Source: Escherichia coli O127:H6 str. E2348/69
GTDB lineage: Bacteria > Pseudomonadota > Gammaproteobacteria > Enterobacterales > Enterobacteriaceae
Assembly (NCBI RefSeq): GCF_000026545.1
Contig: NC_011601.1
Length of the DNA: 64,000 nucleotides
Reading direction: 5' to 3' (one strand)
The notes beneath the pieces are model-generated. The model worked only from the letters and a program-made list of their open reading frames with translations, had not been told where the DNA came from and made no database searches. Shown here in pieces: positions 310-38,372 of this stretch. Numbering within the stretch: position 1 is the stretch's first letter; each line of letters begins with the position of its first letter. Both the position numbers and the translations under genes were made by a program.

Positions 310-1173
310 ATGATCCGCAGTATGACCGCCTACGCCCGGCGTGAAATCAAGGGTGAATGGGGGAGCGCAACCTGGGAAATGCGCTCGGTAAACCAGCGTT
401 ATCTGGAAACTTACTTTCGTCTGCCGGAGCAGTTCCGTAGCCTTGAACCTGTCGTTCGTGAGCGTATTCGTTCTCGCCTGACGCGCGGTAAAGTGGAATG
501 TACCCTGCGCTATGAGCCCGATGTCAGCGCGCAAGGTGAGCTGATCCTCAACGAAAAACTGGCTAAACAGCTGGTAACTGCCGCGAACTGGGTAAAAATG
601 CAGAGTGACGAAGGGGAAATCAACCCGGTTGATATTCTCCGCTGGCCAGGCGTGATGGCGGCCCAGGAACAGGATCTCGACGCGATTGCCGCTGAAATTC
701 TCGCGGCGCTGGATGGTACGCTGGACGACTTTATCATCGCGCGCGAAACCGAAGGTCAGGCGCTGAAAGCATTGATCGAGCAGCGTCTGGAAGGCGTGAC
801 CGCCGAAGTGGTCAAAGTCCGCGCCCACATGCCGGAAATCCTGCAATGGCAGCGTGAGCGTCTGGTGGCTAAGCTGGAAGACGCCCAGGTGCAACTGGAA
901 AACAACCGTCTGGAGCAGGAGTTGGTTCTGCTGGCACAACGAATTGACGTTGCCGAAGAGTTGGACCGCCTCGAAGCGCATGTTAAAGAGACCTACAACA
1001 TTCTGAAGAAAAAAGAAGCCGTTGGTCGTCGTCTGGACTTTATGATGCAGGAGTTCAACCGCGAGTCGAACACCCTGGCCTCGAAGTCTATCAATGCCGA
1101 AGTGACTAACTCCGCCATTGAGCTGAAAGTGTTGATCGAGCAGATGCGCGAGCAGATTCAGAATATTGAATGA
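310..1173 (+). CDS. yicC: YicC-family stress-induced protein, 287 aa
   Basis: The 287-aa ORF MIRSMTAYARREIKGEWGSATWEMRSVNQRYLE... matches remembered E. coli YicC. It has the K-12 position next to rph. Confidence 0.9.
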   Translation: MIRSMTAYARREIKGEWGSATWEMRSVNQRYLETYFRLPEQFRSLEPVVRERIRSRLTRGKVECTLRYEPDVSAQGELILNEKLAKQLVTAANWVKMQSDEGEINPVDILRWPGVMAAQEQDLDAIAAEILAALDGTLDDFIIARETEGQALKALIEQRLEGVTAEVVKVRAHMPEILQWQRERLVAKLEDAQVQLENNRLEQELVLLAQRIDVAEELDRLEAHVKETYNILKKKEAVGRRLDFMMQEFNRESNTLASKSINAEVTNSAIELKVLIEQMREQIQNIE

Positions 1174-1212
1174 TTTTGCATGCTGTCGCATGAAATTGCA
1201 AAAATCCATCAT

Positions 1213-1237
1213 AGCCCGCATTTTGCGGGCTTTTTTA
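1213..1237 (+). terminator. Rho-independent terminator of yicC
   Basis: The hairpin GCCCGC-ATTTT-GCGGGC is followed by a T6 run, 40 nt after the yicC stop. Confidence 0.75.
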
Positions 1238-1281
1238 TTTTCATACTGTCGCATATGATTGCATAGCATCGCGCAAAACAT

Positions 1282-1300
1282 TTGTACCCAAGACTGTACC
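1282..1300. repeat. attL core, direct repeat TTGTACCCAAGACTGTACC
   Basis: It is identical to 12406-12424. An inverted copy of its left half (TGGGTACAAA, 1325-1334) lies just before the int start. Confidence 0.85.
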
Positions 1301-1360
1301 TTTAATAATTTATCCAATTCATTTTGGGTACAAAATGATAGTCAATATTCAGGTGAAACT

Positions 1361-2620
1361 ATGGCAAAGCTGACAGATATCCAAATCAAGTCATGGATTA
1401 AGGCAGGAGAACGCTTCGAGGGGCGCTCTGACGGCAACGGGCTATACCTTCGCTATCGAGTGGGGGATAAAGTGCCTGTATGGCGTTTTCGATATCAGTT
1501 CGCTGGGAAATCACGGGTAATGCTTATTGGATCTTATAGCGAAATATCCCTTTCCAAAGCACGGGAAATAGCCAAGGAATTATCCGCACGTGTAGCCCTG
1601 GGCTTCGATGTCGCCGGGGAAAAGAAAGCGCGAAAAGCGGCTGCTATAGAAAAGATGGAGCGGGAGAAAAACGCGCTTCGCGTGTCAGAGCTAGCAACCG
1701 AGTATTTCGAACGGCAGATTTTGGGACGCTGGAAACATCCCGATCTTCTGCGCCGGAGAATCGATAAGGATATCAACCCACATATTGGCAACATGAAGAT
1801 AGAGGACGTAAAACCCCGTCATATTGATGCGATGCTACAGAGCGTTGTTGATCGTGGCGCTCCAACCGTAGCTAATGACGTTCTGCGCTGGACTAAACGC
1901 ATATTCGATTATGCTATCAAGCGTCATGCACTGGAATTAAACCCAGCTGGAGCATTTGATCTGTCAGACGCTGGCGGGCAGGAAAGTAGCCGTATGCGCT
2001 GGCTGACCCGTGAAGAACTTATACGTTTTTTCCAAGCTATGCGCACTGCAAAAGGATTCAGCCGCGAGAACGAGCTGACCATGAAGCTAATCCTCTGCCT
2101 GTGTTGTCGCAAAATGGAGCTGTGCGGTGCTCAGTGGGATGAATTCGACCTTGATGAAGCAGTGTGGCATCTACCAGCAGAACGCGTTAAAAACGGCGAC
2201 GCTATTGATATACCACTACCTCCACCTGCGGTTGGTTGGTTGAGAGAGCTTCGCACTATCGCGGGCAGTGGGAGTAAATGGGTTCTCCCCGCGCGGAAGA
2301 TGCAACACCGCATGATTCCCCACATTCAGGAAAGCACACTCCCAGTGGCGCTGGCAAAAGTACGCCGCGAAATGCCAGAAGTACCAAACTTCACAATTCA
2401 CGATTTCAGGCGTACCGCCCGCACCCATTTAGCGGCGTTGGGTGTCGATCCCGTAGTCGCAGAACGTTGCCTGAATCACCGCATTAAAGGCGTTGAGGGT
2501 ATCTACAACCGCCACCAGTACTTTGAAGAACGACGGGCAGCCCTGGAACTGTGGGCGGGGCTTCTGGTTTCGCTTGAACGAGGGGAAAACTACAATGTTA
2601 TTCCTTTATCTAAAATATAA
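1361..2620 (+). CDS. int: Tyrosine recombinase, P4-type integrase (N-terminal DUF4102-like arm-binding domain plus catalytic domain), 419 aa
   Basis: MAKLTDIQIKSWIKAGERFEGRSDGNGLYLRYRVGDKVPVWRFRYQFAGKSRVMLIGSY is the typical P4/CP4-57 integrase N-terminus. The C-terminal part has HDFRRTARTHL and a terminal ...GIYNRH... tyrosine region. An AGGTGA SD lies 5 nt upstream of the ATG at 1361. Confidence 0.9.
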   Translation: MAKLTDIQIKSWIKAGERFEGRSDGNGLYLRYRVGDKVPVWRFRYQFAGKSRVMLIGSYSEISLSKAREIAKELSARVALGFDVAGEKKARKAAAIEKMEREKNALRVSELATEYFERQILGRWKHPDLLRRRIDKDINPHIGNMKIEDVKPRHIDAMLQSVVDRGAPTVANDVLRWTKRIFDYAIKRHALELNPAGAFDLSDAGGQESSRMRWLTREELIRFFQAMRTAKGFSRENELTMKLILCLCCRKMELCGAQWDEFDLDEAVWHLPAERVKNGDAIDIPLPPPAVGWLRELRTIAGSGSKWVLPARKMQHRMIPHIQESTLPVALAKVRREMPEVPNFTIHDFRRTARTHLAALGVDPVVAERCLNHRIKGVEGIYNRHQYFEERRAALELWAGLLVSLERGENYNVIPLSKI

Positions 2621-2636
2621 AAGTTTTGTTTGAAGG

Positions 2637-2739
2637 TATTCACCCTATTCACCTTTTTAATTAACTTCATGATTTTAAATAATAAAAAAGGGTGAATACT
2701 TACAGTAAAACTAATCACCTTAGTATTCACCTGTTCACC
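2637..2739. repeat. Iteron cluster (ori-like): six copies of T(A/G)TTCACC around an AT-rich spacer
   Basis: TATTCACC is at 2637, 2646 and 2724. TGTTCACC is at 2732. Degenerate TAATCACC is at 2712. Inverted GGTGAATA is at 2691. The 2654-2690 spacer is almost pure A/T. TGTTCACC is the type I iteron I recall being bound by P4 alpha protein at ori and crr. Confidence 0.65.
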
Positions 2740-2939
2740 TTCTAAAGCTGCTGTGGCTGCTCCCCTTGCCCGAAAACACGCCAGCCACCAGCGTTAAAAA
2801 AAACTACAAAAATCATCATCGTACAGATCTGTACGATGACGCCAGCACTCACCCTACAAAACAACCTAACTTATTGATTTCAAAAGTAGAGAAAATCTGC
2901 TTTATGCCACTAGCTCGCACCCGTCCCCAAAAAGAAAAA

Positions 2940-2966
2940 GCCCGCGCTGGAGACGCACGGGCTTTT
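2940..2966. terminator. Bidirectional hairpin terminator between the int/iteron region and the cargo operon
   Basis: GCCCGCG-N9-CACGGGC is flanked by A-rich sequence upstream and TTTT downstream, so a T-run follows the hairpin on both strands. Confidence 0.5.
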
Positions 2967-3123
2967 GGGTACCGATAACCATGTTTGGAATCAACTCATT
3001 GAGTTCTGACCTCAATTTGCATGTTATCACAAGAAAAACACATTGTAATAATTGCAACAACGAATATCATCATTGCATATAATGAAACATAAATATCCGA
3101 TAGAACATACTGAGGTCTGACCG

Positions 3124-3675
3124 ATGCAAGATATTACAAACATCGCAGTGACTGGCGAAGATGGCGTGGTGACGTATGCCGACGGCAGTAAAGAGGAGTT
3201 CCAGTGCAGCGGAACCGTTGCGACCATCATTGCAAGTCTTGCAACGACACTCGAGAAAGAACGCAAAATGCGCATCGCCACCGGCGACCGCCTGCGCCGC
3301 ATGTACACCCGCGACAGTGATATGATTTCCCGCGGTTTGAATGGCACGTCTGCTACTTCCACGGCACCGACAGCAATGAATGCTGAGTTCATGCGTCTGG
3401 TACGTGCCGTAGCGCCGAAATACGATTCAGCACTGCCCGACGCCGACCCGCGCATCGTTGCGCTCGATGTGCTGCGCTACGCCCCTGCTGAGGCGTTCAG
3501 CGCCGTACACCCTACCCCAATGTCAGAAATCCAGCTGGATCAGGCTATCGATATACTCGAGCAGGTTGGCGACTACATGAAAGCAAACAATATCGCTCCG
3601 AAAATAATTTCTACAGGAGACGCAATCCGCAGCATCAATGCTGACAACGCCACCTTCTGGGGCAAAAAACACTAA
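3124..3675 (+). CDS. Hypothetical protein, 183 aa (cargo operon 1, gene 1)
   Basis: A GAGG SD lies about 9 nt upstream of the ATG. I recognise no family. The C-terminal motif INADNATFW is shared with the next ORF. Confidence 0.65.
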   Translation: MQDITNIAVTGEDGVVTYADGSKEEFQCSGTVATIIASLATTLEKERKMRIATGDRLRRMYTRDSDMISRGLNGTSATSTAPTAMNAEFMRLVRAVAPKYDSALPDADPRIVALDVLRYAPAEAFSAVHPTPMSEIQLDQAIDILEQVGDYMKANNIAPKIISTGDAIRSINADNATFWGKKH

Positions 3676-3688
3676 AGAGATATGAAGC

Positions 3689-3877
3689 ATGTCTATCTAT
3701 GACCCGAAATTAGCCGCAGGCAACCCACAGCGCGCCCACCGCCCAATGCTGACCCGTCAGGATCTTGAAACGGCAAAGGCACGCAATAACTTCGATCGCC
3801 AGAGTCGCAACCTGCAGCAACTCAACGAATCAAATGCACGGTTCTGGAGTGAACAGAATGAGAAAGCCAAACGTTAA
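3689..3877 (+). CDS. Hypothetical small protein, 62 aa (cargo operon 1, gene 2)
   Basis: It starts 13 nt after gene 1. It carries LNESNARFW, similar to the gene 1 C-terminus. Its 3' end overlaps the gene 3 start by 20 nt. Confidence 0.5.
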   Translation: MSIYDPKLAAGNPQRAHRPMLTRQDLETAKARNNFDRQSRNLQQLNESNARFWSEQNEKAKR

Positions 3878-4034
3878 GCCGGTCCTGCTGTCCGCCGAGC
3901 AGATGCAGGCCATACGCAACATTCAGGAACGTGAACGCCAGCGCTCCAATCTCGGCGTCGCTCCCACCGTTCACCAGATTGCCCGCGGCCTCATGGCTAA
4001 GGCTCTGGCCTCACTGGCAAGCGAGGGCGCGTAA
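3858..4034 (+). CDS. Small putative ribbon-helix-helix-like protein, 58 aa (cargo operon 1, gene 3)
   Basis: The ATG at 3858 has a GGAG SD 8 nt upstream, within the longer track ORF 3765-4034. MRKPNVKPVLLSAEQMQAIRNIQERERQR...TVHQIARGLMAKALASL has a strand-helix-helix pattern. The stop overlaps the next start as TAATG. Confidence 0.5.
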   Translation: MRKPNVKPVLLSAEQMQAIRNIQERERQRSNLGVAPTVHQIARGLMAKALASLASEGA

Positions 4035-4765
4035 TGGGCGCCATTCACCAGATATATGAGCAGGAAATGTTCTATAACTGGATAGGCGATGGTAAACGAT
4101 GTGTAGCATTCCACGAAGCGGGCCATGCAGTAGCCGCATGGCTTATTCGCTTAGATATGCAGGTTATCGCCATTATGGATGAATCCGGCTACGTTGCTGG
4201 CGAACATGTACATGAAGCCCAGTGTTTGGGCGTTGTTAAACACGGCATAATCCACAGCCACGATCTCAGGCGTTTGCGGGAGAGTAAATCTGGTGTAGTT
4301 GGGCACGATGGCAAAGTTATCCCTTTCATACGCTACTACGCGGAAGGTATAAAGCGCGATGCAACAAAGGCCGCTTTTGTAGCCCTCGCTGGACCAGTAA
4401 GCGAAGCCATTTACGAAAATAACGAAATTTTCAATATAAAGTATTCACTCCCTCACCGCTATGACATGGCTAACGTAAATGACATGCTCGATTTAATATG
4501 TGCCACGGATAAGCGAATTAACAGGAAGTTAATGCTTTCTAAACTTGTTGAAAAGACCAAATTCCTCATGACTCAATACTGGCCGGAAGTAGGAAAAATA
4601 GCGCATTTGCTTGAGCGGGATAACATTGTTAATGGCCGCGATGTTAGCTCGCTAATCGGCCTCAACGTCATTGACCGGGCAACGCCATTTTTGGTATCTG
4701 ACTTGAGCAGTACATTTGCTCATCTCCCGTACTCGTCCCTGCCTCCGAATGAATTAGCAACTTGA
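4034..4765 (+). CDS. Stand-alone FtsH-like (peptidase M41-type) zinc metalloprotease domain protein, 243 aa, with no AAA+ module and no TM segment
   Basis: FHEAGHAVAAW (HEAGH at nt 4112-4126) matches the FtsH zinc site. Later segments (VALAGPVSEAIY, MANVNDMLDLI, KIAHLLERDNIVNGRDVSSLI) parallel the FtsH protease domain by eye. There is no Walker A/B. Confidence 0.7.
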   Translation: MGAIHQIYEQEMFYNWIGDGKRCVAFHEAGHAVAAWLIRLDMQVIAIMDESGYVAGEHVHEAQCLGVVKHGIIHSHDLRRLRESKSGVVGHDGKVIPFIRYYAEGIKRDATKAAFVALAGPVSEAIYENNEIFNIKYSLPHRYDMANVNDMLDLICATDKRINRKLMLSKLVEKTKFLMTQYWPEVGKIAHLLERDNIVNGRDVSSLIGLNVIDRATPFLVSDLSSTFAHLPYSSLPPNELAT

Positions 4766-4777
4766 AGACAGTAAAGT

Positions 4778-4802
4778 AGCCATGCATTTAACACGCATGG
4801 CT
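4778..4802. terminator. Bidirectional hairpin between the two convergent cargo operons
   Basis: A perfect 8-bp stem AGCCATGC / GCATGGCT with a 9-nt loop lies in the 47-nt gap between the stops at 4765 and 4813. Confidence 0.55.
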
Positions 4803-4812
4803 ATGTGAACAT

Positions 4813-6036
4813 TTAAGAATTAGAGCGCTTAGGCGATCGCGTAAATTGCACTAAAGCCCCTTTATGATCGTTAGCCTGCACATCACGATGCTCAACCAAC
4901 ATAGATTTTAATTTTGCCAGATGCACAACAGCAGCCTTCTTGCCAGTCAGGTACCCCTCGGGCAAACCAGCAATCATTTCCACATCAATAGCAGATAAAC
5001 CTGCGAATGCAGCAAGCCGTTCAACTGAAATGATTCCAGACGATGCCAGCAATTCAATAGTACGTTTCAACAAACGTGGTTTTTCAGGCTCACGATAATC
5101 ATCTCCCGGCTCTGATTTCGCTCCCCAACGTGCTGAACGACGCTTATAAAGATTTTGTTTCTCTTCTTCCGTAATAATATGCAGCACATGTAAACGCATG
5201 ATACTTGCCGCAACGGAAATACCATAGCGTTGTTTAATTAAAAGCAAGCTATCTAATGTTACCGGGGTCCTAATTTCTTCGGCAAATGTCTCAGCAGGAA
5301 GCAGCAGTGCTCCCGCAAATTTATGAGCCTGACTTTCCTTCAGCTTATAACGTTCGGCTTCGAGTTCGTTGCCAACATAGCGGTGAAGGATCAGATGACC
5401 AATTTCGTGAGCAAGGTCAAATCTGCTACGAAAAGCATTACCTTTATCTGAAGAGAGGAGAACAAAAGGAACACCTAAAGTCTCACTCCAGGCAGAAAGC
5501 CCTTCAATCTGCGCAACGCCTGTTTCTTCTCTAATAACGATAATACCATTACTCTCTGCGGCTAAAGCAAGATCCGGTATTTCCTTTGTACCAAGATTCC
5601 AAAGAGCACGGCACTCATTAGCAGCGTCTTCAATATCTGCATCACTAATTTCATCAATGTTTGTAAAGCTACGACGCGGTAGTTTTAGCTCCGGCAGATC
5701 TACAAACTCAGTCAGCTTAGTAACTAACTCATTAGCCCAATGGATTCGAGTTTCTAACATTGCTCGTGCAGCTACATGAGCTGATGCATTGCTTCTGAAC
5801 AGAGGCTTTGACATCCCCTTCAACAGAGGGCGCGTAAACCATTCAGGTGTAACATTTACGACAGTGGCCAGACGTTCTAAAGCCTCAGACTCTGGAGCCT
5901 GTTGACCGGAACGCCATTTGCTAATGGTTGCTGGTGATACACCCACCATAGTAGCTAATTGAGTTTGTGATAGCCGCCGGGCGGCTAGTACCTGTGCTAA
6001 CCTGCCCGGTTGAAATTCGGCGACGCCTCGGCTCAT
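4813..6036 (-). CDS. XRE-family HTH fused to an ImmA/IrrE-type (M78, COG2856) zinc peptidase domain with a C-terminal extension, 407 aa
   Basis: The N-terminus LAQVLAARRLSQTQLATMVGVSPATISKWRSGQQAP is a classic XRE HTH. HEIGHLILH is at aa 210-218 (HEIGH at nt 5395-5409). The start overlaps the upstream gene stop as ATGA, with a GAGGAAG SD. Confidence 0.8.
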   Translation of the reverse strand: MSRGVAEFQPGRLAQVLAARRLSQTQLATMVGVSPATISKWRSGQQAPESEALERLATVVNVTPEWFTRPLLKGMSKPLFRSNASAHVAARAMLETRIHWANELVTKLTEFVDLPELKLPRRSFTNIDEISDADIEDAANECRALWNLGTKEIPDLALAAESNGIIVIREETGVAQIEGLSAWSETLGVPFVLLSSDKGNAFRSRFDLAHEIGHLILHRYVGNELEAERYKLKESQAHKFAGALLLPAETFAEEIRTPVTLDSLLLIKQRYGISVAASIMRLHVLHIITEEEKQNLYKRRSARWGAKSEPGDDYREPEKPRLLKRTIELLASSGIISVERLAAFAGLSAIDVEMIAGLPEGYLTGKKAAVVHLAKLKSMLVEHRDVQANDHKGALVQFTRSPKRSNS

Positions 6037-6680
6037 ACATTATCTTCCTCGGTTCCATCTTTTCTGATAATGCCCCTTTTGAGCCCAGGGAATGCATTAT
6101 CTTCTTGGGACGGAACTACATCATATCGGGTTAAAAAAAGTTCAAGTGGCTCATGAAAAACCCAGCGCTTCCCATCAGAACTTGGTACAACAAGCTCTAT
6201 AGACATCGGAGCTTCAGGCTGAATCTGCAACGAACCGGAAAAACGGCATACTACGAACAGTGTAGCTTTTGGCACATCAGAACCATCGGAGAATAAATCC
6301 GGTTGCACCATTTTTTCCACAAACACGTTCTCAGAAATGAGTTCTTGCTTACGTTTGCTACGGAATAATCTCTTCCACTGGTTATCATTGTAGCTTTCAC
6401 GAACAATCGTGAATATACCACTATGGCCTTCTACAATACGGTTACCACGCAGCTTTCCAGGATTACAACCGTTGGCCTCAAACACCTCATAAATAGTTTC
6501 ATTCAGGTTTAAATGACGATCATAACCAAGCGCGGTCGATCTGTGATCTAGCTTCTTCTTTTGAGCATAATCGTAAGAACGCTTTGATGCCGCGTAAATC
6601 GCGTCAGAAAGGGCCATGAAGAGTTGTTTTGAAACATTCTGAACGATGAGATCTGCCACTTTGGATTTTTTCACGACCAT
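6033..6680 (-). CDS. Hypothetical protein, 215 aa, first gene of cargo operon 2
   Basis: It is an intact ORF with an AGGA SD. It is translationally coupled (ATGA) to the XRE-ImmA gene. I recognise no family. Confidence 0.65.
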   Translation of the reverse strand: MVVKKSKVADLIVQNVSKQLFMALSDAIYAASKRSYDYAQKKKLDHRSTALGYDRHLNLNETIYEVFEANGCNPGKLRGNRIVEGHSGIFTIVRESYNDNQWKRLFRSKRKQELISENVFVEKMVQPDLFSDGSDVPKATLFVVCRFSGSLQIQPEAPMSIELVVPSSDGKRWVFHEPLELFLTRYDVVPSQEDNAFPGLKRGIIRKDGTEEDNV

Positions 6681-6683
6681 TTC

Positions 6684-6702
6684 CTATCACTGTCACTGAT
6701 AG
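6684..6702. promoter_or_regulatory. Operator-like inverted repeat CTATCA-N7-TGATAG at the start of cargo operon 2
   Basis: CTATCACTGTCACTGATAG lies 4 nt upstream of the 6680 start codon, overlaps the SD, and contains an internal tandem TCACTG. Confidence 0.45.
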
Positions 6703-7209
6703 CCGTGATTTTATATCAGTATTTTTTCGTGTGTCCATAACGCAATCAATTATTTTTTCCTTTGTCAGCAAGAATTATATAAAAAGCACTATCATGACAG
6801 GATTTGGGCCACTAACCTTTCACAGACTCTTGAAGTCCTAGAAAAAAGCAATGGCACAAGGTGTCCTTGCCGGGAGAAAAATCATCTGGCTACCAGCAAC
6901 CTTATAGATTCCAGATCAACGTAATATCAAAGTAAAACGTCCATTTCCGGTACCATATTTGGTCATTACGACGGGGGAAACTTATACCCACTGCTGCCCC
7001 ATCGTCAGCGCCGACAGGGACCTATGCCGCAAGGTATAAGGCAAAATTGGCATTTTCGCTATTCCCCCTGCCCGTATTTTTTGGCTTACTGGAATTTCTC
7101 TATCTAACACAATGAACTTGAGGCTATTCCGACAGGGAGAAAAGCGATCTACGCCTGACCGCCTGCCTCAGCAATCATCCAGGCAAGTACGTGTGTAAGG
7201 CTAACGCGA

Positions 7210-7890
7210 ATGAGTGATTTTTATTCCCCTCTACCAAGCTATGATCTTGTCCGGGCAGCGGAGATGCTGACTGATAAGGGGGCAAATTGTACCGGTAACG
7301 ATTTATTGGAACTATGGAACCAAGGCGTTATCGAGTTGTGTTTTTCTCTGCCGGACTACATTGCTTGTGAAGATGTTAATTTTCCCGGGCATGGTCACAG
7401 CATTTTGTTATCCGTGGATCCGATTAGCTTCAACCTTTTCTGGCTAAATGTTGATTACCCACCGAACTTAAATGCTAACTTTTCTGTGAAAGAATATGGC
7501 TCAGATAGTGAATTCCATGAGCAGTCCCTATGGATACCAACAGAACCGCACTACAACACTCACCATGATAACGGGGAAGGGCTTTGCGAAGCGTTAAGGA
7601 ATACTTATGGCCGGGAAAATTTACGAATACCAGGTGTCGAATTGCAAAAGGTTTGGCGCTTTTTGATCGGTCAGCCTTATGAAAAAAAGCCAACGCCTGA
7701 GCGTATCACCGCTAAGCAATGCCGCTTTATCGTCGCATTACTCAGATCGTATAACCTGACTGACGATGATTTTAAGGGGAGCATTAGGGACCTGAGAATT
7801 AAGATATCTAACCGGATCCCTTCAATCGGTGATCCTGAAATCGATGATAATACCCTTACTGACTGGCTGAAGAAGGGAGGGGTTCGGTAG
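7210..7890 (+). CDS. Hypothetical protein, 226 aa, first gene of the rightward alpA operon
   Basis: It is an intact ORF after a 529-bp intergenic region. I recognise no family. Confidence 0.6.
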   Translation: MSDFYSPLPSYDLVRAAEMLTDKGANCTGNDLLELWNQGVIELCFSLPDYIACEDVNFPGHGHSILLSVDPISFNLFWLNVDYPPNLNANFSVKEYGSDSEFHEQSLWIPTEPHYNTHHDNGEGLCEALRNTYGRENLRIPGVELQKVWRFLIGQPYEKKPTPERITAKQCRFIVALLRSYNLTDDDFKGSIRDLRIKISNRIPSIGDPEIDDNTLTDWLKKGGVR

Positions 7891-7891
7891 C

Positions 7892-7928
7892 TGAGTTTTC
7901 ATAACTCCGATGAGTTTTCAATAACTCC
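7892..7928 (+). repeat. Tandem direct repeat TGAGTTTTCA(A)TAACTCC x2
   Basis: The copies are at 7892-7908 and 7911-7928 and differ by one extra A. They lie immediately after the 7890 stop. Confidence 0.7.
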
Positions 7929-7957
7929 CCCACCCGTAACCACCTACCCCGTAGCCT

Positions 7958-7993
7958 TGCGATTACCTTCTCACTCAATAGCAGGTAATCGCA
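7958..7993 (+). promoter_or_regulatory. Hairpin able to sequester the alpA SD and start codon
   Basis: There is a perfect 10-bp inverted repeat, TGCGATTACC (7958-7967) and GGTAATCGCA (7984-7993). The right arm contains the AGGTAA SD and the A of the ATG. Confidence 0.45.
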
Positions 7994-8205
7994 TGAAATC
8001 GCAAACTTTCACCTTTCCTACCAATGGCAACGCACGAGCCAAACAAGTGGCGCACTATCTTGGAGTGCATATCAGCACCGTATGGCGCTATGCAAAACGT
8101 CCTGATTTTCCAAAACCCCACCAGTTAACCGACGGCGTGACCGTCTTTGACGCCGCAGCTATTCGCCAATGGAACAAGCAAAAAACCGGGGGTGAGAATG
8201 CTTAA
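7993..8205 (+). CDS. alpA: AlpA-family (MerR-like HTH) phage/island regulatory protein, 70 aa
   Basis: RAKQVAHYLGVHISTVWRYAKRPDFPKPHQLTDGVTVFDAAAIRQWNKQK matches the AlpA/Vis-type pattern. Confidence 0.8.
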   Translation: MKSQTFTFPTNGNARAKQVAHYLGVHISTVWRYAKRPDFPKPHQLTDGVTVFDAAAIRQWNKQKTGGENA

Positions 8206-8259
8206 CGCGACCGTGAGCACACCCTGCACGACAGCCGTTCGATCTCCATTGTTGGCGGG

Positions 8260-8454
8260 TCAGGCTTTCGGCTCAATACCCAGCCGCTGGAGTTCTTTGC
8301 GCCCCAAGGTTTTCATCCAATTAGCTAAACTCATACCTGCATCTCGTGCGGCGGCCTCGAATTGCTCTTTCAATTCTGGGGCGATCCTCACTTGGAAAGC
8401 TGGTGCCTTTCCCCTGCCTTTGGGCTGTTTATCACGCTGTATTACTGTTGACAT
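8260..8454 (-). CDS. Ribbon-helix-helix (Arc/CopG-type) DNA-binding protein, 64 aa
   Basis: MSTVIQRDKQPKGRGKAPAFQVRIAPELKEQFEAAARDAGMSLANWMKTLGRKEL is a typical RHH signature. The start is chosen at the internal Met of track ORF 8260-8547. Confidence 0.65.
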   Translation of the reverse strand: MSTVIQRDKQPKGRGKAPAFQVRIAPELKEQFEAAARDAGMSLANWMKTLGRKELQRLGIEPKA

Positions 8455-8458
8455 GTAT

Positions 8459-8512
8459 GTACCTATTAAACTAAGATTCAAATCAATAGGTACGCACCTT
8501 AACATGTTAAGG
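8459..8512. promoter_or_regulatory. Divergent operator region: a 9-bp inverted repeat plus a 16-bp perfect palindrome
   Basis: GTACCTATT (8459-8467) pairs with AATAGGTAC (8485-8493). CCTTAACATGTTAAGG is at 8497-8512. Both lie between the RHH gene start (8454) and the rightward operon start (8589). Confidence 0.5.
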
Positions 8513-8588
8513 TCAGAAAAGACAACGCCCCGTAGTGCTCGCAACACATACGGGGCGTCTAACCAACAACGTTACGGAGACTAACGCT

Positions 8589-8789
8589 ATGGCTAAGCCG
8601 CAGTGTACCCAAACTCACCCCAAATATCAGTATCGTTTTATGGCGCTCGATCGCGCTGACCGCCAGGCAAAACCCTGCAAAATCATTGTTGAGGCCACCA
8701 GCGAGCATGAAGCACGTAAGGTGTTGGCACCTCACTACATCCTGTCACTGTCCGCCGTTTTGCCAGTTCAGGAGGTGAGCCATGTTTAA
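8589..8789 (+). CDS. Small protein, 66 aa, possibly Icd-like (host cell division inhibitor-like)
   Basis: The ATG has a GGAGA SD 8 nt upstream. MAKPQCTQTHPKYQYRFMALDRADRQAKPCKIIVEATSEHEARKVL resembles my memory of Icd-like proteins found upstream of primases in P4-like islands. This is unverified. Confidence 0.45.
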   Translation: MAKPQCTQTHPKYQYRFMALDRADRQAKPCKIIVEATSEHEARKVLAPHYILSLSAVLPVQEVSHV

Positions 8790-8976
8790 TGTCATTGTCA
8801 CGGTCACCTATCACTTTTCGGGAACGATCCGTCGTTTTGCTATTCCGGAACGTTTCAATAATCGTGAGCTCGCAGAGAAAGCGGCGCAGCAGTTAACCCA
8901 TACCAGCTATCTGGATGATGGAGTGAGCAGAATTGTGACCCACGCGGCGGAAGTAGTGGAGGTGCGCCATGTATGA
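8782..8976 (+). CDS. Hypothetical small protein, 64 aa
   Basis: Its start overlaps the previous stop by 8 nt (translational coupling). I recognise no family. Confidence 0.5.
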   Translation: MFNVIVTVTYHFSGTIRRFAIPERFNNRELAEKAAQQLTHTSYLDDGVSRIVTHAAEVVEVRHV

Positions 8977-9157
8977 CGCCTACCTGAACCCAAAGGACGC
9001 ACTCCGTCCGATCGCCGTTGCACTCGAGGCTGCGCAGTTTATCGCGCTTGACCCGGAGAATACCGATTTAGCCCATGAGCTGATCGCCTGGGCACTTGAA
9101 ACAGCCGCGCGTGCCTCAGCTGCGCAACGTAACACCCCGGAGGTGGACAATGCTTAA
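8969..9157 (+). CDS. Hypothetical small protein, 62 aa
   Basis: Its start overlaps the previous stop by 8 nt. I recognise no family. Confidence 0.5.
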   Translation: MYDAYLNPKDALRPIAVALEAAQFIALDPENTDLAHELIAWALETAARASAAQRNTPEVDNA

Positions 9158-9458
9158 TCTCAATACATGGAATCTTTTCACGCTGCCGCTGAACGGTGGC
9201 GCAGCTGAGACAGCGCCGGACGATCTGCGTCTGCTGGCCGCTGTGGGGGACGAGGCTCGCAACAACTACCTGCGCGGTGTAAGCGCCATCGGCAATCTGA
9301 TCTTCTGGGCATGTGATAACCCCAACTACACCGACCATCAAGCTGACCTGCCAGCGCTGGGCGCATTCCTGAAACATACCGCTGATATGGCGCGCGCTGC
9401 CGAATTCATGGCAGGACATCTGGACTCACTGGCTGACGGCAAAGAGGGAGGCAAATAA
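9150..9458 (+). CDS. Hypothetical protein, 102 aa
   Basis: The internal ATG at 9150 has a GGAGG SD and overlaps the previous stop (ATGCTTAA). I recognise no family. Confidence 0.5.
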   Translation: MLNLNTWNLFTLPLNGGAAETAPDDLRLLAAVGDEARNNYLRGVSAIGNLIFWACDNPNYTDHQADLPALGAFLKHTADMARAAEFMAGHLDSLADGKEGGK

Positions 9459-9679
9459 TGCCACGCAAACATCGCTCATCAAGCAACCTGATCAAATTAA
9501 TGGAACGCCAGAAAGGTATAGGGCGCGACGATATCCAGATCGCAGATAATCGCCCTACATTCATGCCGTACGAGCCGAACGGAACCTACGCTACAAACCG
9601 CCATACCCGCCGTATGCTACGCAAGCTCCACGGCATCCAGGCAAAAAGAATGTGTGATCTGAAAGGAGGTCAGAAATGA
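9458..9679 (+). CDS. Hypothetical basic small protein, 73 aa
   Basis: It overlaps the previous gene as TAATG, and its stop overlaps the primase start as ATGA. Confidence 0.5.
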   Translation: MPRKHRSSSNLIKLMERQKGIGRDDIQIADNRPTFMPYEPNGTYATNRHTRRMLRKLHGIQAKRMCDLKGGQK

Positions 9680-12090
9680 GTGGATTCGATCACCTGATGG
9701 AGCAGGGGCAGAAACGCACCCCTGCTCGTTTTACTGCAAATAGCTTTTCTGACCTGTGCAACGCTATTCTATCGCATCGTGTGCAAATTTCCATCACACA
9801 GGAAATGACGGATGAAGAACGGCGCAAAGAAAAGCAGAAACTGTACTGGTTCTCGGCAACTACCCAGCAGGACGGGCAGCGACGTAAACCCGAAAACATG
9901 GCACCGTGTGCTTTCGGTATGCTGGACATTGACGGCAGCACTCCCGGTGCAATCACAGCACTTGTACAGGTGTTCCGGCGATACTCAATGCTGGTGTACC
10001 AGACGGCCAGCTATACGACGGATGAACCTCGTCTGCGTATTGTGTGCGAGCTTTCCCGAGCGGTTGAATCTGACTACCGCCGAGCGACAGGCGAATCCAT
10101 AGAAACTTTGTTGATGCAGGAGGCTGGATTCTCATTCGCCAGCCTGGCGGATAAGAAAGCACGCTGGGAGAACGGCAGCGATTATGTTGTCTTTGACCGC
10201 AATGTATACGGCGCTCAAAGCTATTGCTACTGTCCACACACTGGAGCGAAAGCCCAGAATTACGCGGGCGCGGTAATCGACGTAGGGGCGTTACCGGAAC
10301 CCGCCCAGCCACCAGCGAAGGCGGCCAAAAGCAAGGCAAAGAAACAGCGCCAGCGTGACGCCGCGGCGGTAATAGATGCTGATTTTGACGATCTGAGCGC
10401 CGGACCGGATAACTTCCTTATCGCCGACCTGCGCAGCGCACTCTGGTTTCCCTCCATGCTGCAAAAGGCATGGGACAATGGGGCGTGGATTGAGCAGGGC
10501 TACCGCCTTGCATCTCTCAAAGGCACCGATTTTGAGGACGACGCGCGGCAACTGTGGGTCGAGTGGTCATTGACCGCAGCGGATGGCTGGCCTGATGAAG
10601 AACTTGATGAAGTCGCGGCACAACGCTGGAATGGTCTCGCCCCTGACAAAACCAGCTATAAAGCTATTTTTACTGATGCTCAGGCGCAGGGGTGGAATAA
10701 TCCGGGCAAATGGCGAGCAAAGGCCGCGTACATTGAGAAAATGGCCCCCAGCACACGCGGTGAACTGCTGGCGCAATATTACGGCAACGTATGCCTGAAA
10801 GCTGATGGCAACATGGTTTATCACTATACCGGGCAGGTGTGGGAGCACATCGCCGATGCCGAGTTGCGCCGCCAGCTTTCGCAGATTTTCAAAGATAACG
10901 GGGTCCCCTTTACACCGTACGAGGTTAAAAGCGCGATTGAGGCTATGGGAATGCTTCTGCCTTTAATGGGAGAAACTCCTCGTAACCTGATTGGCTTTGC
11001 CAACGGCGTTTATGATCTCGAGGCGCAGCGATTCCGCCCCCACTGCCCAGACGATTGGCTGACCAGCCATAACGGCGTTGAATACACGCAGCCGGTTAAA
11101 GGCGAAACCCTGAAAAACAATGCCCCAAACTTCTGGCGCTGGCTGCATCATTCCGCAGGGGGCGACTTCGACAAAATGGAGAGAATCAAAGCCGCTCTGT
11201 ATATGGTGCTGGCAAACCGCTACGACTGGCAACTGTTCATCGAGGTTACCGGTGCTGGTGGCAGTGGTAAAAGCGTGTTCACGGGTATTGCACGTATGCT
11301 GACGGGCGAACTACACGCCACCAGCGGCACAATGGAGGACATGGACACCGCGCGCGAACGCGCATCTTTTGTCGGCAAAAGCCTGATCACCCTACCCGAC
11401 CAAGCAACATATACGGGTTCCGGGCCGGGTATCAAGGCTATAACGGGCGGCGACGTGGTAAGGATCGACCCAAAGCACGAAAAGCCATTCCATACGGTTA
11501 TTCGCGCCGTTGTCATCGCAACAAACAACGAACCTATGCGTTTCACCGAACGACAAGGCGGGATATCGCGGCGCCGGGTTATTTTCCCGTTTAACCATGA
11601 AGTGCCGGAGGCGGAACGTGATCCCCATCTGCTCGATAAAATTAAAGCCGAACTGCCGGTAATCGTCCGTGGTCTGCTGATTGACTTCGAACAGCCAGGC
11701 AAAGCCAAATCGCTACTTATCGCGCAGCGTGATTCAGCGGAAGCGCTGCAGGTGAAGAACGATAACGACCCGATGTATGGCTTTTGCTCTTACCTGCTAG
11801 GTTTGCCGAATCCCGAGGGCATGTACATGGGCGATGGGCGCATGGCGCGAGAGCCACGCATCTACCTCTATCATGCTTATCTGGCCTATCTGGAAGCCTA
11901 CGGTTATCAGAGAACCCCCACCCTACCGAAGTTCAGCGGAGATTTACGGGACACGCTCAAAGCCTTTGGTATTACTCTGGACAGTAAAAAGAGTAAAAAG
12001 GGCAAAAGATATAACGTCAATTTGTCTGACAGGGCACAAGAATGGCTGGGAGAAGACGAACTCTCAGCTGTGCCCGACACATTGCAGTAA
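9676..12090 (+). CDS. P4 alpha-like replication protein: N-terminal primase-like domain, PriCT-2-like region, D5_N/SF3 helicase P-loop, 804 aa
   Basis: Walker A GAGGSGKS is at nt 11251-11274. The surrounding ...ANRYDWQLFIEVTGAGGSGKSVF...IKAITGGDVVRIDPKHEKPF...ATNNEPMRF...GGISRRRVIFPF matches the phage/plasmid primase P4-family C-terminal domain. A candidate DxD (LDIDG) is at nt 9925-9933. Confidence 0.85.
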   Translation: MSGFDHLMEQGQKRTPARFTANSFSDLCNAILSHRVQISITQEMTDEERRKEKQKLYWFSATTQQDGQRRKPENMAPCAFGMLDIDGSTPGAITALVQVFRRYSMLVYQTASYTTDEPRLRIVCELSRAVESDYRRATGESIETLLMQEAGFSFASLADKKARWENGSDYVVFDRNVYGAQSYCYCPHTGAKAQNYAGAVIDVGALPEPAQPPAKAAKSKAKKQRQRDAAAVIDADFDDLSAGPDNFLIADLRSALWFPSMLQKAWDNGAWIEQGYRLASLKGTDFEDDARQLWVEWSLTAADGWPDEELDEVAAQRWNGLAPDKTSYKAIFTDAQAQGWNNPGKWRAKAAYIEKMAPSTRGELLAQYYGNVCLKADGNMVYHYTGQVWEHIADAELRRQLSQIFKDNGVPFTPYEVKSAIEAMGMLLPLMGETPRNLIGFANGVYDLEAQRFRPHCPDDWLTSHNGVEYTQPVKGETLKNNAPNFWRWLHHSAGGDFDKMERIKAALYMVLANRYDWQLFIEVTGAGGSGKSVFTGIARMLTGELHATSGTMEDMDTARERASFVGKSLITLPDQATYTGSGPGIKAITGGDVVRIDPKHEKPFHTVIRAVVIATNNEPMRFTERQGGISRRRVIFPFNHEVPEAERDPHLLDKIKAELPVIVRGLLIDFEQPGKAKSLLIAQRDSAEALQVKNDNDPMYGFCSYLLGLPNPEGMYMGDGRMAREPRIYLYHAYLAYLEAYGYQRTPTLPKFSGDLRDTLKAFGITLDSKKSKKGKRYNVNLSDRAQEWLGEDELSAVPDTLQ

Positions 12091-12109
12091 CTTGTAAAAA
12101 ATCACCAAG

Positions 12110-12131
12110 AACCCCGTAAATCGGGGTTTTT
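12110..12131 (+). terminator. Rho-independent terminator after the primase gene
   Basis: AACCCCG-TAAAT-CGGGGTT is followed by a T-run, 20 nt after the stop. Confidence 0.75.
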
Positions 12132-12152
12132 GTCTATTTATTAGTCTGAAAG

Positions 12153-12254
12153 GGTGAACAGGTGCGCATACCTTAACAAAGCTGTTCACTCTAATAATTT
12201 TCTTTAATATCAGTACACTACCCGCAATAAGTGAACAGATGGACGGGGTGAACA
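12153..12254. repeat. Second iteron cluster (crr-like): four copies of GGTGAACA / TGTTCAC
   Basis: GGTGAACA is at 12153-12160 and 12247-12254. TGTTCACT is at 12183-12190. AGTGAACA is at 12230-12237. An AT-rich spacer lies between them. It is the same octamer family as 2637-2739. Confidence 0.6.
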
Positions 12255-12405
12255 CTTCACACCTATAGCGCGAAATATTTTAATATTTGCAGTTGAATTG
12301 CAATCCTTGAAAACAGAAACGCGTAGCAAAACGTAGAGTGCTGAAAAAATTTTGTTGGGGAGCAGTTCAAACTGCATGAGCAATTTTCAAGCACTCCTCT
12401 TTGTC

Positions 12406-12424
12406 TTGTACCCAAGACTGTACC
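12406..12424. repeat. attR core, direct repeat TTGTACCCAAGACTGTACC
   Basis: It is identical to 1282-1300. Confidence 0.85.
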
Positions 12425-12653
12425 CAATAGAAAAAATAGAAAATAAAAACTCAGCAATAGCAGCGATTGGTTACACTACTCAACATTCAGATTCAACTCG
12501 TAACGCCAATTCTTACTTTTCAGCCTTCACAAATGCCGCCCACTCAAACAGAGCGGCATTTTTCTTCCCCGCAACTTCAATTCTGTTTTGCGTGCCTGCT
12601 CCAGATTTTGCGATGTTTTTTTGCCCAGCGCAGTGAGAACGTGAGATACTCAC

Positions 12654-13832: not shown

Positions 13833-16224
<2,392 letters not shown>

Positions 16225-38277: not shown

Positions 38278-38372
38278 GGAAGATCGTCGTCTCCGGTGAG
38301 GCGGCTGGACTTCAAATCCAGTTGGGGCCGCCAGCGGTCCCGGGCAGGTTCGACTCCTGTGATCTTCCGCCA
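38278..38372 (+). tRNA. selC: tRNA-Sec (anticodon UCA), 95 nt
   Basis: GGAAGATCGTCGTCTCCGGTGAGGCGGCTGGACTTCAAATCCAGTTGGGGCCGCCAGCGGTCCCGGGCAGGTTCGACTCCTGTGATCTTCCGCCA has a long variable arm, a TCA anticodon and a CCA end. Confidence 0.97.

Follow-up and report, generated by a model that had tools for sequence, protein, structure and literature searches.

Does an unannotated intergenic stretch of the enteropathogenic Escherichia coli strain O127:H6 E2348/69 (EPEC) hold the replication origin of the island in which it lies? The stretch in question, positions 2637-2739 of the 64-kb DNA that we analyzed as a whole (hereafter, the window), comes directly after int, the integrase gene of an island of 11.3 kb that has the 3' end of yicC as its insertion site, and RefSeq gives no feature from int to the next CDS. 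An earlier note on this DNA had read it as a P4-type iteron origin on the basis of repeated octamers. We have examined this reading through the octamers themselves, the replication gene of the island, the relatives of both in P4, PICIs and other elements, and the borders of the island.

The octamer cluster and its spacer

All six octamers that the earlier note had placed within 103 bp (TATTCACC three times, TGTTCACC and TAATCACC once each, and one inverted copy) were present. The stop codon of int is 16 bp ahead of iteron 1 (TATTCACC, 2637-2644, plus strand), which was read from the sequence and aligned with iteron 1 of the module profile described below. It is followed with a 9-bp step, the majority of relatives having 10 bp, by iteron 2 (TATTCACC, 2646-2653, plus strand). 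Next come a 37-bp AT-rich spacer (2654-2690), the presumed DNA-unwinding element, and iteron 3 (2691-2698, minus strand), which is inverted, the plus strand reading GGTGAATA, and was located both by the octamer scan and by the profile. Iteron 4 (TAATCACC, 2712-2719, plus strand) is degenerate and occupies the slot that is also the most variable one in relatives. Iteron 5 (TATTCACC, 2724-2731, plus strand) is set off by steps of 12 and 8 bp, equal to those of the module in the O157 island, and iteron 6 (TGTTCACC, 2732-2739, plus strand) is an exact P4 type-1 repeat. With its flanks, as part of 2621-2760, the module reads GAAGG TATTCACC C TATTCACC, the 37-bp spacer, then GGTGAATA CTTACAGTAAAAC TAATCACC TTAG TATTCACC TGTTCACC TTC, that is, two direct iterons, 37 bp of AT-rich DNA, one inverted iteron, 13 bp and three direct iterons.

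A scan of the whole window bore out the clustering of the octamer. TRTTCACC occurred 14 times against 3.67 expected, a number reached in none of 100 shuffles, and five of these 14 copies fell inside the 103-bp cluster. With the looser pattern T[AG][AT]TCACC there were six sites within the 103 bp, whereas in 1000 first-order Markov simulations no cluster exceeded three sites, the maximum being one site in 912 runs, two in 87 and three in a single run. A de novo k-mer scan of the island revealed no iteron-like arrays besides this cluster and the second one described below. Scans of 2400-3200 detected neither promoters nor terminators inside the iteron cluster, and a search of full-text literature for the octamer returned primer noise only.

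The spacer had been described as consisting of A and T only; this was incorrect, as it contains two C (2665 and 2668) and two G (2671 and 2690), leaving 33 A/T out of 37. Its proposed role as an unwinding element nevertheless gained from the stability calculation, since no 35-mer of the island has a less stable duplex than 2655-2689, which lies within the spacer. Its nearest-neighbour free energy is -33.5 kcal/mol, and it belongs to the top 0.12% of the window for low duplex stability. Such a minimum fits a DNA-unwinding element.

The non-coding gap of 380 bp that follows the module (2740-3123) contains a perfect 28-bp palindrome at 2814-2841 and, at 2936-2966, a GC-rich hairpin with T/A runs on either side that resembles a bidirectional terminator.

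The initiator gene and the second cluster

The island encodes an alpha-like initiator of 804 aa (9676-12090, plus strand), which has, according to Pfam hits and the comparisons below, a D5_N/DUF5906 SF3 helicase and a C-terminal winged-helix origin-binding domain. Residues 314-791, corresponding to the SF3 helicase and the C-terminal domain, aligned with residues 294-768 of P4 alpha at 44% identity. The protein exceeded the cutoff of TIGR01613 ("primase, P4 family"), and its C-terminus aligned across the entire solved origin-binding domain of P4 (PDB 1KA8, E = 2.8e-17). The N-terminal third differs between the two proteins: the first ~310 aa (9676-10635) are unrelated to the zinc-finger/Toprim primase of P4 alpha, and residues 16-145 matched PHROG primase and helicase-primase families at their N-termini. 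The designation of this protein as a P4-type primase-helicase holds for the helicase and the C-terminal domain but not for the N-terminal third, which is not the primase domain of P4.

The closest full-length homologue, with 56% identity and the same type of N-terminal domain, was found in Xenorhabdus beddingii (L004). At this locus, the iterons next to the alpha gene are of the TATGTAC type and are followed by an attR resembling a tRNA 3' end. Since even the closest homologue uses different iterons, iteron specificity appears to shift easily within the alpha family. For the prediction of iteron specificity, we aligned the C-terminal domains of about 75 homologues, each labelled by the iteron type adjacent to its gene. 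The domain encoded in the window was 30-46% identical to all iteron-type groups and clustered with none of them; an outlier from a locus without detected iterons (L055) shared 18% identity with it. The wing of the origin-binding domain reads KKSKKGKRYN here and [IV][RQ][ST]N in the proteins encoded at TTCACC-iteron loci. This difference in the wing and the different iterons of the closest homologue tell against the origin reading. As far as its sequence tells, the initiator is present, intact and of the cognate type, and it probably binds the iterons. The X. beddingii locus also carries, directly upstream of its alpA-like gene (5860-5900), a run of GGAATATT / GAATATTCC repeats that may be an operator.

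A second group of octamers had been noted at 12100-12300. It does exist, directly 3' of the stop codon of the 804-aa gene and before attR, and consists of four sites within 12153-12254, two of them TGTTCACC and two TGTTCACT. The octamer scan placed these sites at 12153-12160 (minus strand), 12183-12190 (plus strand), 12230-12237 (minus strand) and 12247-12254 (minus strand), with an AT-rich spacer at 12191-12229 that ranks fifth among the least stable 35-mers of the island. Read on the minus strand, they form a reduced layout of two direct iterons, a 39-bp AT-rich spacer, one inverted and one direct iteron. The region 12151-12258 (minus strand), which the module profile matched over its full length, can be described as a degenerate, crr-like second copy of the module.

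Relatives of the module in P4, PICIs and other loci

P4 alpha reportedly binds type-1 iterons in both ori and crr. In the GenBank record of P4, six repeats at 9310-9413 are labelled "ori type 1 repeats", and five more are annotated in each of the 120-bp repeats of crr. On the strand of int and alpha, P4 ori comprises TGTTCACC-TC-TGTTCACC, a 35-bp AT-rich spacer, GGTGAACA, 14 bp and three TGTTCACC. It resembles the window module in its octamer family, in its 2-~35-1-3 layout and in its orientation relative to int and alpha, both P4 ori and the window module being on the strand of these two genes. Furthermore, P4 and the window island both have a second cluster between alpha and att, oppositely oriented to the first. 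The crr-like site is here a single degenerate copy, whereas P4 crr is made of two 120-bp repeats, and we counted this against the origin reading. The two elements also differ in that the window iterons are mostly TATTCACC and those of P4 ori TGTTCACC, and in the position of the module, which in P4 lies between sid and vis but in the window is adjacent to the stop codon of int and 7 kb upstream of alpha. In the window island, unlike in P4, 5 kb of cargo (RosmerTA and others) lie between the module and alpA. A blastn search of phage genomes with 2560-2800 yielded chance AT-rich matches only; the likeness of the module to P4 ori is architectural and not BLAST-alignable.

The second comparison concerns the Gram-negative PICIs. 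In E. coli PICIs, the region 3' of pri-rep was described as two sets of iterons around an AT-rich region, and the cloned rep-ori of EcCICFT073 maintained a plasmid, for which both rep and ori were required (PMC6092414). In the sequence of this ori (L085, 7003-7240), we recognized two direct iterons, ~35-36 bp of AT-rich DNA, one inverted iteron, 13 bp and three direct iterons, all of the TCTACC type, and the module continues into a mirrored second copy. The Pri-Rep of EcCICFT073 is 46% identical to the 804-aa protein, and across the PICIs compared the identity of Pri-Rep to it ranges over 46-48%. The O157 island (O157:H7, L002) contains two mirrored TGTTCACC modules directly 3' of pri-rep, in mid-island (13952-14181), and the right half of the first of them is 85% identical to window positions 2687-2741. 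The PICI located at yicC-dinD in O157:H7 and O145:H28 has the same att site (GAGCAGATTCAA), the same module architecture and, in the O157 island, the same octamer as the window island. The arrangement differs, however: PICIs have their two mirrored modules immediately 3' of pri-rep, whereas the window has a degenerate copy there and the complete copy beside int. In addition, capsid, PerC and SSB genes are annotated in both the O157 and the EcCICFT073 islands but are not among the annotated products of the window island. Comparison of the module sequences shows that P4 ori and the tested PICI ori share one conserved 2-35-1-3 cassette. The statement that the organization of the PICI origin is unlike that of any other known replicon (PMC6092414) seems at odds with a module common to P4 and PICI ori. 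Origin function has been published for two relatives of the window module, namely P4 ori/crr and the rep-ori of EcCICFT073.

The cassette is not limited to these two cases. One genome per species was scanned using three aligned helicase and origin-binding regions of the alpha type as the query, giving 80 loci, and the 2-35-1-3 module recurred in dozens of them, with spacers of 34-37 bp that were mostly of 35 bp. An nhmmer profile was built from 32 distinct modules of other loci, leaving out the module of the window. Two matches only were obtained with this profile in the 64-kb window, at 2634-2743 on the plus strand (E = 4.4e-12) and at 12258-12151 on the minus strand (E = 7.4e-6), both covering the full length of the model. 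The departures of the first match from the family norm are its 37-bp spacer (norm 35), the 9-bp step between iterons 1 and 2 (norm 10) and the one TAATCACC iteron, and they too count against the origin reading.

The position of the module varied among the relatives. In 58 of the roughly 80 loci with an alpha homologue, it was situated on the 3' side of the initiator gene and no more than 400 bp away from it; in six P4-like loci it was located upstream of vis, in the manner of P4, and two of these six (L077 and L081) also had a minus-strand copy downstream. The window exhibits the same pattern of a plus-strand copy upstream and a minus-strand copy downstream, but 9.3 kb separate its upstream copy from the stop codon of alpha. 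Other homologues had, at the same place, arrays of TCTACC, GTGTTCAT, GGTATAC, CCCTACC or, in X. beddingii, TATGTAC; the sequence of the iterons thus varies with the initiator. The nearest match in layout was a locus of Serratia quinivorans (L071) with the order int, module, vis, alpha and no detectable sid, delta or psu, in which the module is likewise on the plus strand and upstream of alpha. Some 450 bp separate this module from int, and vis follows it directly, without the cargo that in the window lies between ori and vis, and the integrase and att site of the S. quinivorans element differ from those of the window island.

Island borders, competing readings and proposed replication

The att core was mapped against the empty yicC-dinD site of K-12 (L084) and the O157:H7 island inserted at the same site. 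We found the core, CAGATTCA, as a direct repeat at 1153-1160 (attL, plus strand, inside the 3' end of yicC) and at 12488-12495 (attR, plus strand), which sets the limits of the island at ~1161-12495; the new terminus of yicC is supplied by the island. This core agrees with the PICI att site GAGCAGATTCAA given for yicC-dinD in Table S1 of PMC6092414. An 18-bp repeat at 1283-1300 (TGTACCCAAGACTGTACC) was rejected as the crossover site, as it is inside the island and the comparison with K-12 puts the core elsewhere. Because the true core is at 1153-1160 and not at this repeat, the octamer cluster is 1.48 kb away from it, and the distance of 1.3 kb from attL given in the earlier note, where attL was misplaced, holds as an approximation only.

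The tyrosine integrase (419 aa, 1361-2620, plus strand) has an arm-binding domain and shares 79% identity with the integrase of the PICI that occupies this att site in O157. The side of the replication operon starts with an alpA/vis-like gene for a regulator or excisionase (7993-8205, plus strand), followed by an ORF similar to the Icd/P4-cI region (8589-8789, plus strand). An int-alpA RNA motif (Rfam RF02996; score 39.4 bits, gathering threshold 35.8) is present at 7117-7184 on the plus strand, upstream of a 226-aa ORF and alpA. The int, alpA and 804-aa genes are all intact ORFs. The cargo segment between the module and alpA contains the anti-phage pair RosmerTA, encoded on the minus strand by rmrA (4813-6036; HTH and M78 peptidase, PADLOC E = 3.5e-125) and rmrT (6033-6680; E = 8e-16). 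Across 17 genomes of several serotypes, int, ori and alpha form a backbone with 99-100% identity, while the cargo varies, the O45:H2 and O55:H7 variants of this island having a different segment in place of the RosmerTA one. A 243-aa ORF (4034-4765, plus strand) resembles the M41 (FtsH-like) peptidase family only weakly, through an HEXXH match, and is named "peptidase M41 family protein" in some RefSeq records; together with small ORFs upstream of it, it recurs at 91-96% identity in otherwise unrelated E. coli loci.

The core set of P4-like satellites has been defined as int, psu, delta, sid, alpA, epsilon and alpha (PMC8628076). The window island has in common with these satellites only int, the alpA-like gene, the Icd/cI-region ORF and alpha. 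Searching the island by tblastn with P4 Sid, Delta, Psu and Epsilon gave no homologue, whereas the same queries did match the P4-like loci L075, L077 and L081. A P2/P4 cos site was not found with up to three mismatches allowed, using a pattern checked on the start of the P4 record. An 11/12 match to lambda cosN is located at 11445, inside the alpha gene, and is one of two such matches in the window, with 0.19 expected. No match to capsid, terminase, cos-related or PerC families was obtained among the larger ORFs of the island with Pfam, PHROG, NCBIfam and PADLOC. The island thus falls outside the definition of P4-like satellites (PMC8628076), and it appears to depart from the usual layout of PICIs as well.

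With the borders and gene content established, the readings of the octamers can be weighed against each other. That they are arm-type binding sites of the integrase is suggested by their position directly after int, by the arm-binding domain of the enzyme and by the second cluster, 230-340 bp from the attR core; we find this reading hardly credible. The main cluster and the att core are separated by 1.48 kb, and the arm-site role is filled by separate TGTACCC repeats that flank the core on both arms, as TGTACCC/TGTACC at 1283, 1295 and 1326 (the last inverted) on the P' arm (1283-1332) and as two TGTACCC at 12407 and 12419 on the P arm (12407-12425, plus strand). These repeats recur as GTGTACCCAAAGGTGTACCC / GTGTACACAAGGATGTACAC at the same place in the O157 island and are likely the arm-type sites of the integrase, and they make better candidates than the octamers, which the earlier note had likewise set aside in this respect. 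The arm repeats annotated in the P4 record are of the TTGGGGGCAT type, and across loci with unrelated integrases the octamers track the alpha homologues. In the O157 island, whose integrase is so similar, the octamers are about 6-8 kb from either end and the modules are 3' of pri-rep, so the module follows the initiator gene and not the integrase. A reading closer to replication is that initiation takes place at the alpha-proximal cluster (12151-12258), the int-proximal one being auxiliary, as a crr-type enhancer or in copy control or handcuffing. The usual position of the module just 3' of the initiator gene in relatives speaks for it, as does the assay on EcCICFT073, in which the segment tested as ori came from the 3' side of rep. 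We nonetheless judge it highly unlikely, given that the alpha-proximal copy is degenerate, with four irregularly spaced sites and the weaker profile match, whereas the int-proximal copy is complete and reproduces the arrangement of P4 ori, and that in P4 and in the L077 and L081 loci the plus-strand upstream copy is of the ori type and the minus-strand downstream copy of the crr type.

The module could also be a true homologue of P4/PICI origins that has become a non-functional relic, left by recombination between elements sharing the yicC att site, the island itself having lost autonomous replication. The 85% identity to the right half of the O157 module means that recombination at the shared att site could have brought the module here, and its atypical spacings and TAATCACC iteron, the divergent wing of the origin-binding domain, the different iterons of the closest homologue and the lack of detected cos and helper-exploitation genes point in the same direction. 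On the other hand, the profile matched the module over its full length with a low E-value (4e-12), int, alpA and the 804-aa gene are intact, and the near-identical backbone with swapped cargo is as would be expected for an active modular element; we thus regard decay of the origin as unlikely. A further possibility concerns how the two clusters work together. In the integrated island they are 9.4 kb apart, the complete one at the left end by int and the degenerate one at the right end by alpha; in the excised circle they would be ~1.7 kb apart, head-to-head, and would flank attP-int. Because excision would bring them to this distance, it could license replication from a bipartite ori split between the ends of the island, the P4/PICI ori being a portable cassette that was relocated here and whose iterons co-evolve with the winged-helix domain. 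We consider this elaboration unlikely. The reading that we prefer, and consider probable with good confidence, is that 2637-2739 is the main replication origin of the 11.3-kb island, equivalent to P4 ori. The P4-type origin reading from which we started is supported by the architecture of the module, the profile match, the 1KA8-type initiator, the crr-like copy and the stability minimum in the spacer, and the module would be a previously unannotated member of the known P4/PICI kind of origin, with the function predicted from this kinship.

If 2637-2739 acts as such an origin, replication would proceed as follows. After excision of the island, the C-terminal winged-helix domain of the 804-aa protein would bind the six iterons of the TRTTCACC type, and the protein would also bind the four iterons of the degenerate copy beside its own gene (12151-12258). 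The 37-bp AT-rich spacer would then melt between iterons 2 and 3, and the SF3 helicase together with the N-terminal primase-like domain would start theta replication of the excised circle. We infer iteron binding, spacer melting and the need for both sites by analogy with P4. A putative function is in this way assigned to an unannotated intergenic stretch of a reference EPEC strain, and a candidate replication module (ori, crr-like site and initiator) is defined for an island carrying RosmerTA. More generally, the position of the cassette seems flexible among elements while the iteron sequence varies with the initiator, which may be of use in annotating the origins of P4-like and PICI-like elements and in building alpha-dependent vectors.

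Outside the island, the window also includes tRNA-SeC (selC) at 38278-38372 on the plus strand, the classic insertion site of the LEE in EPEC.
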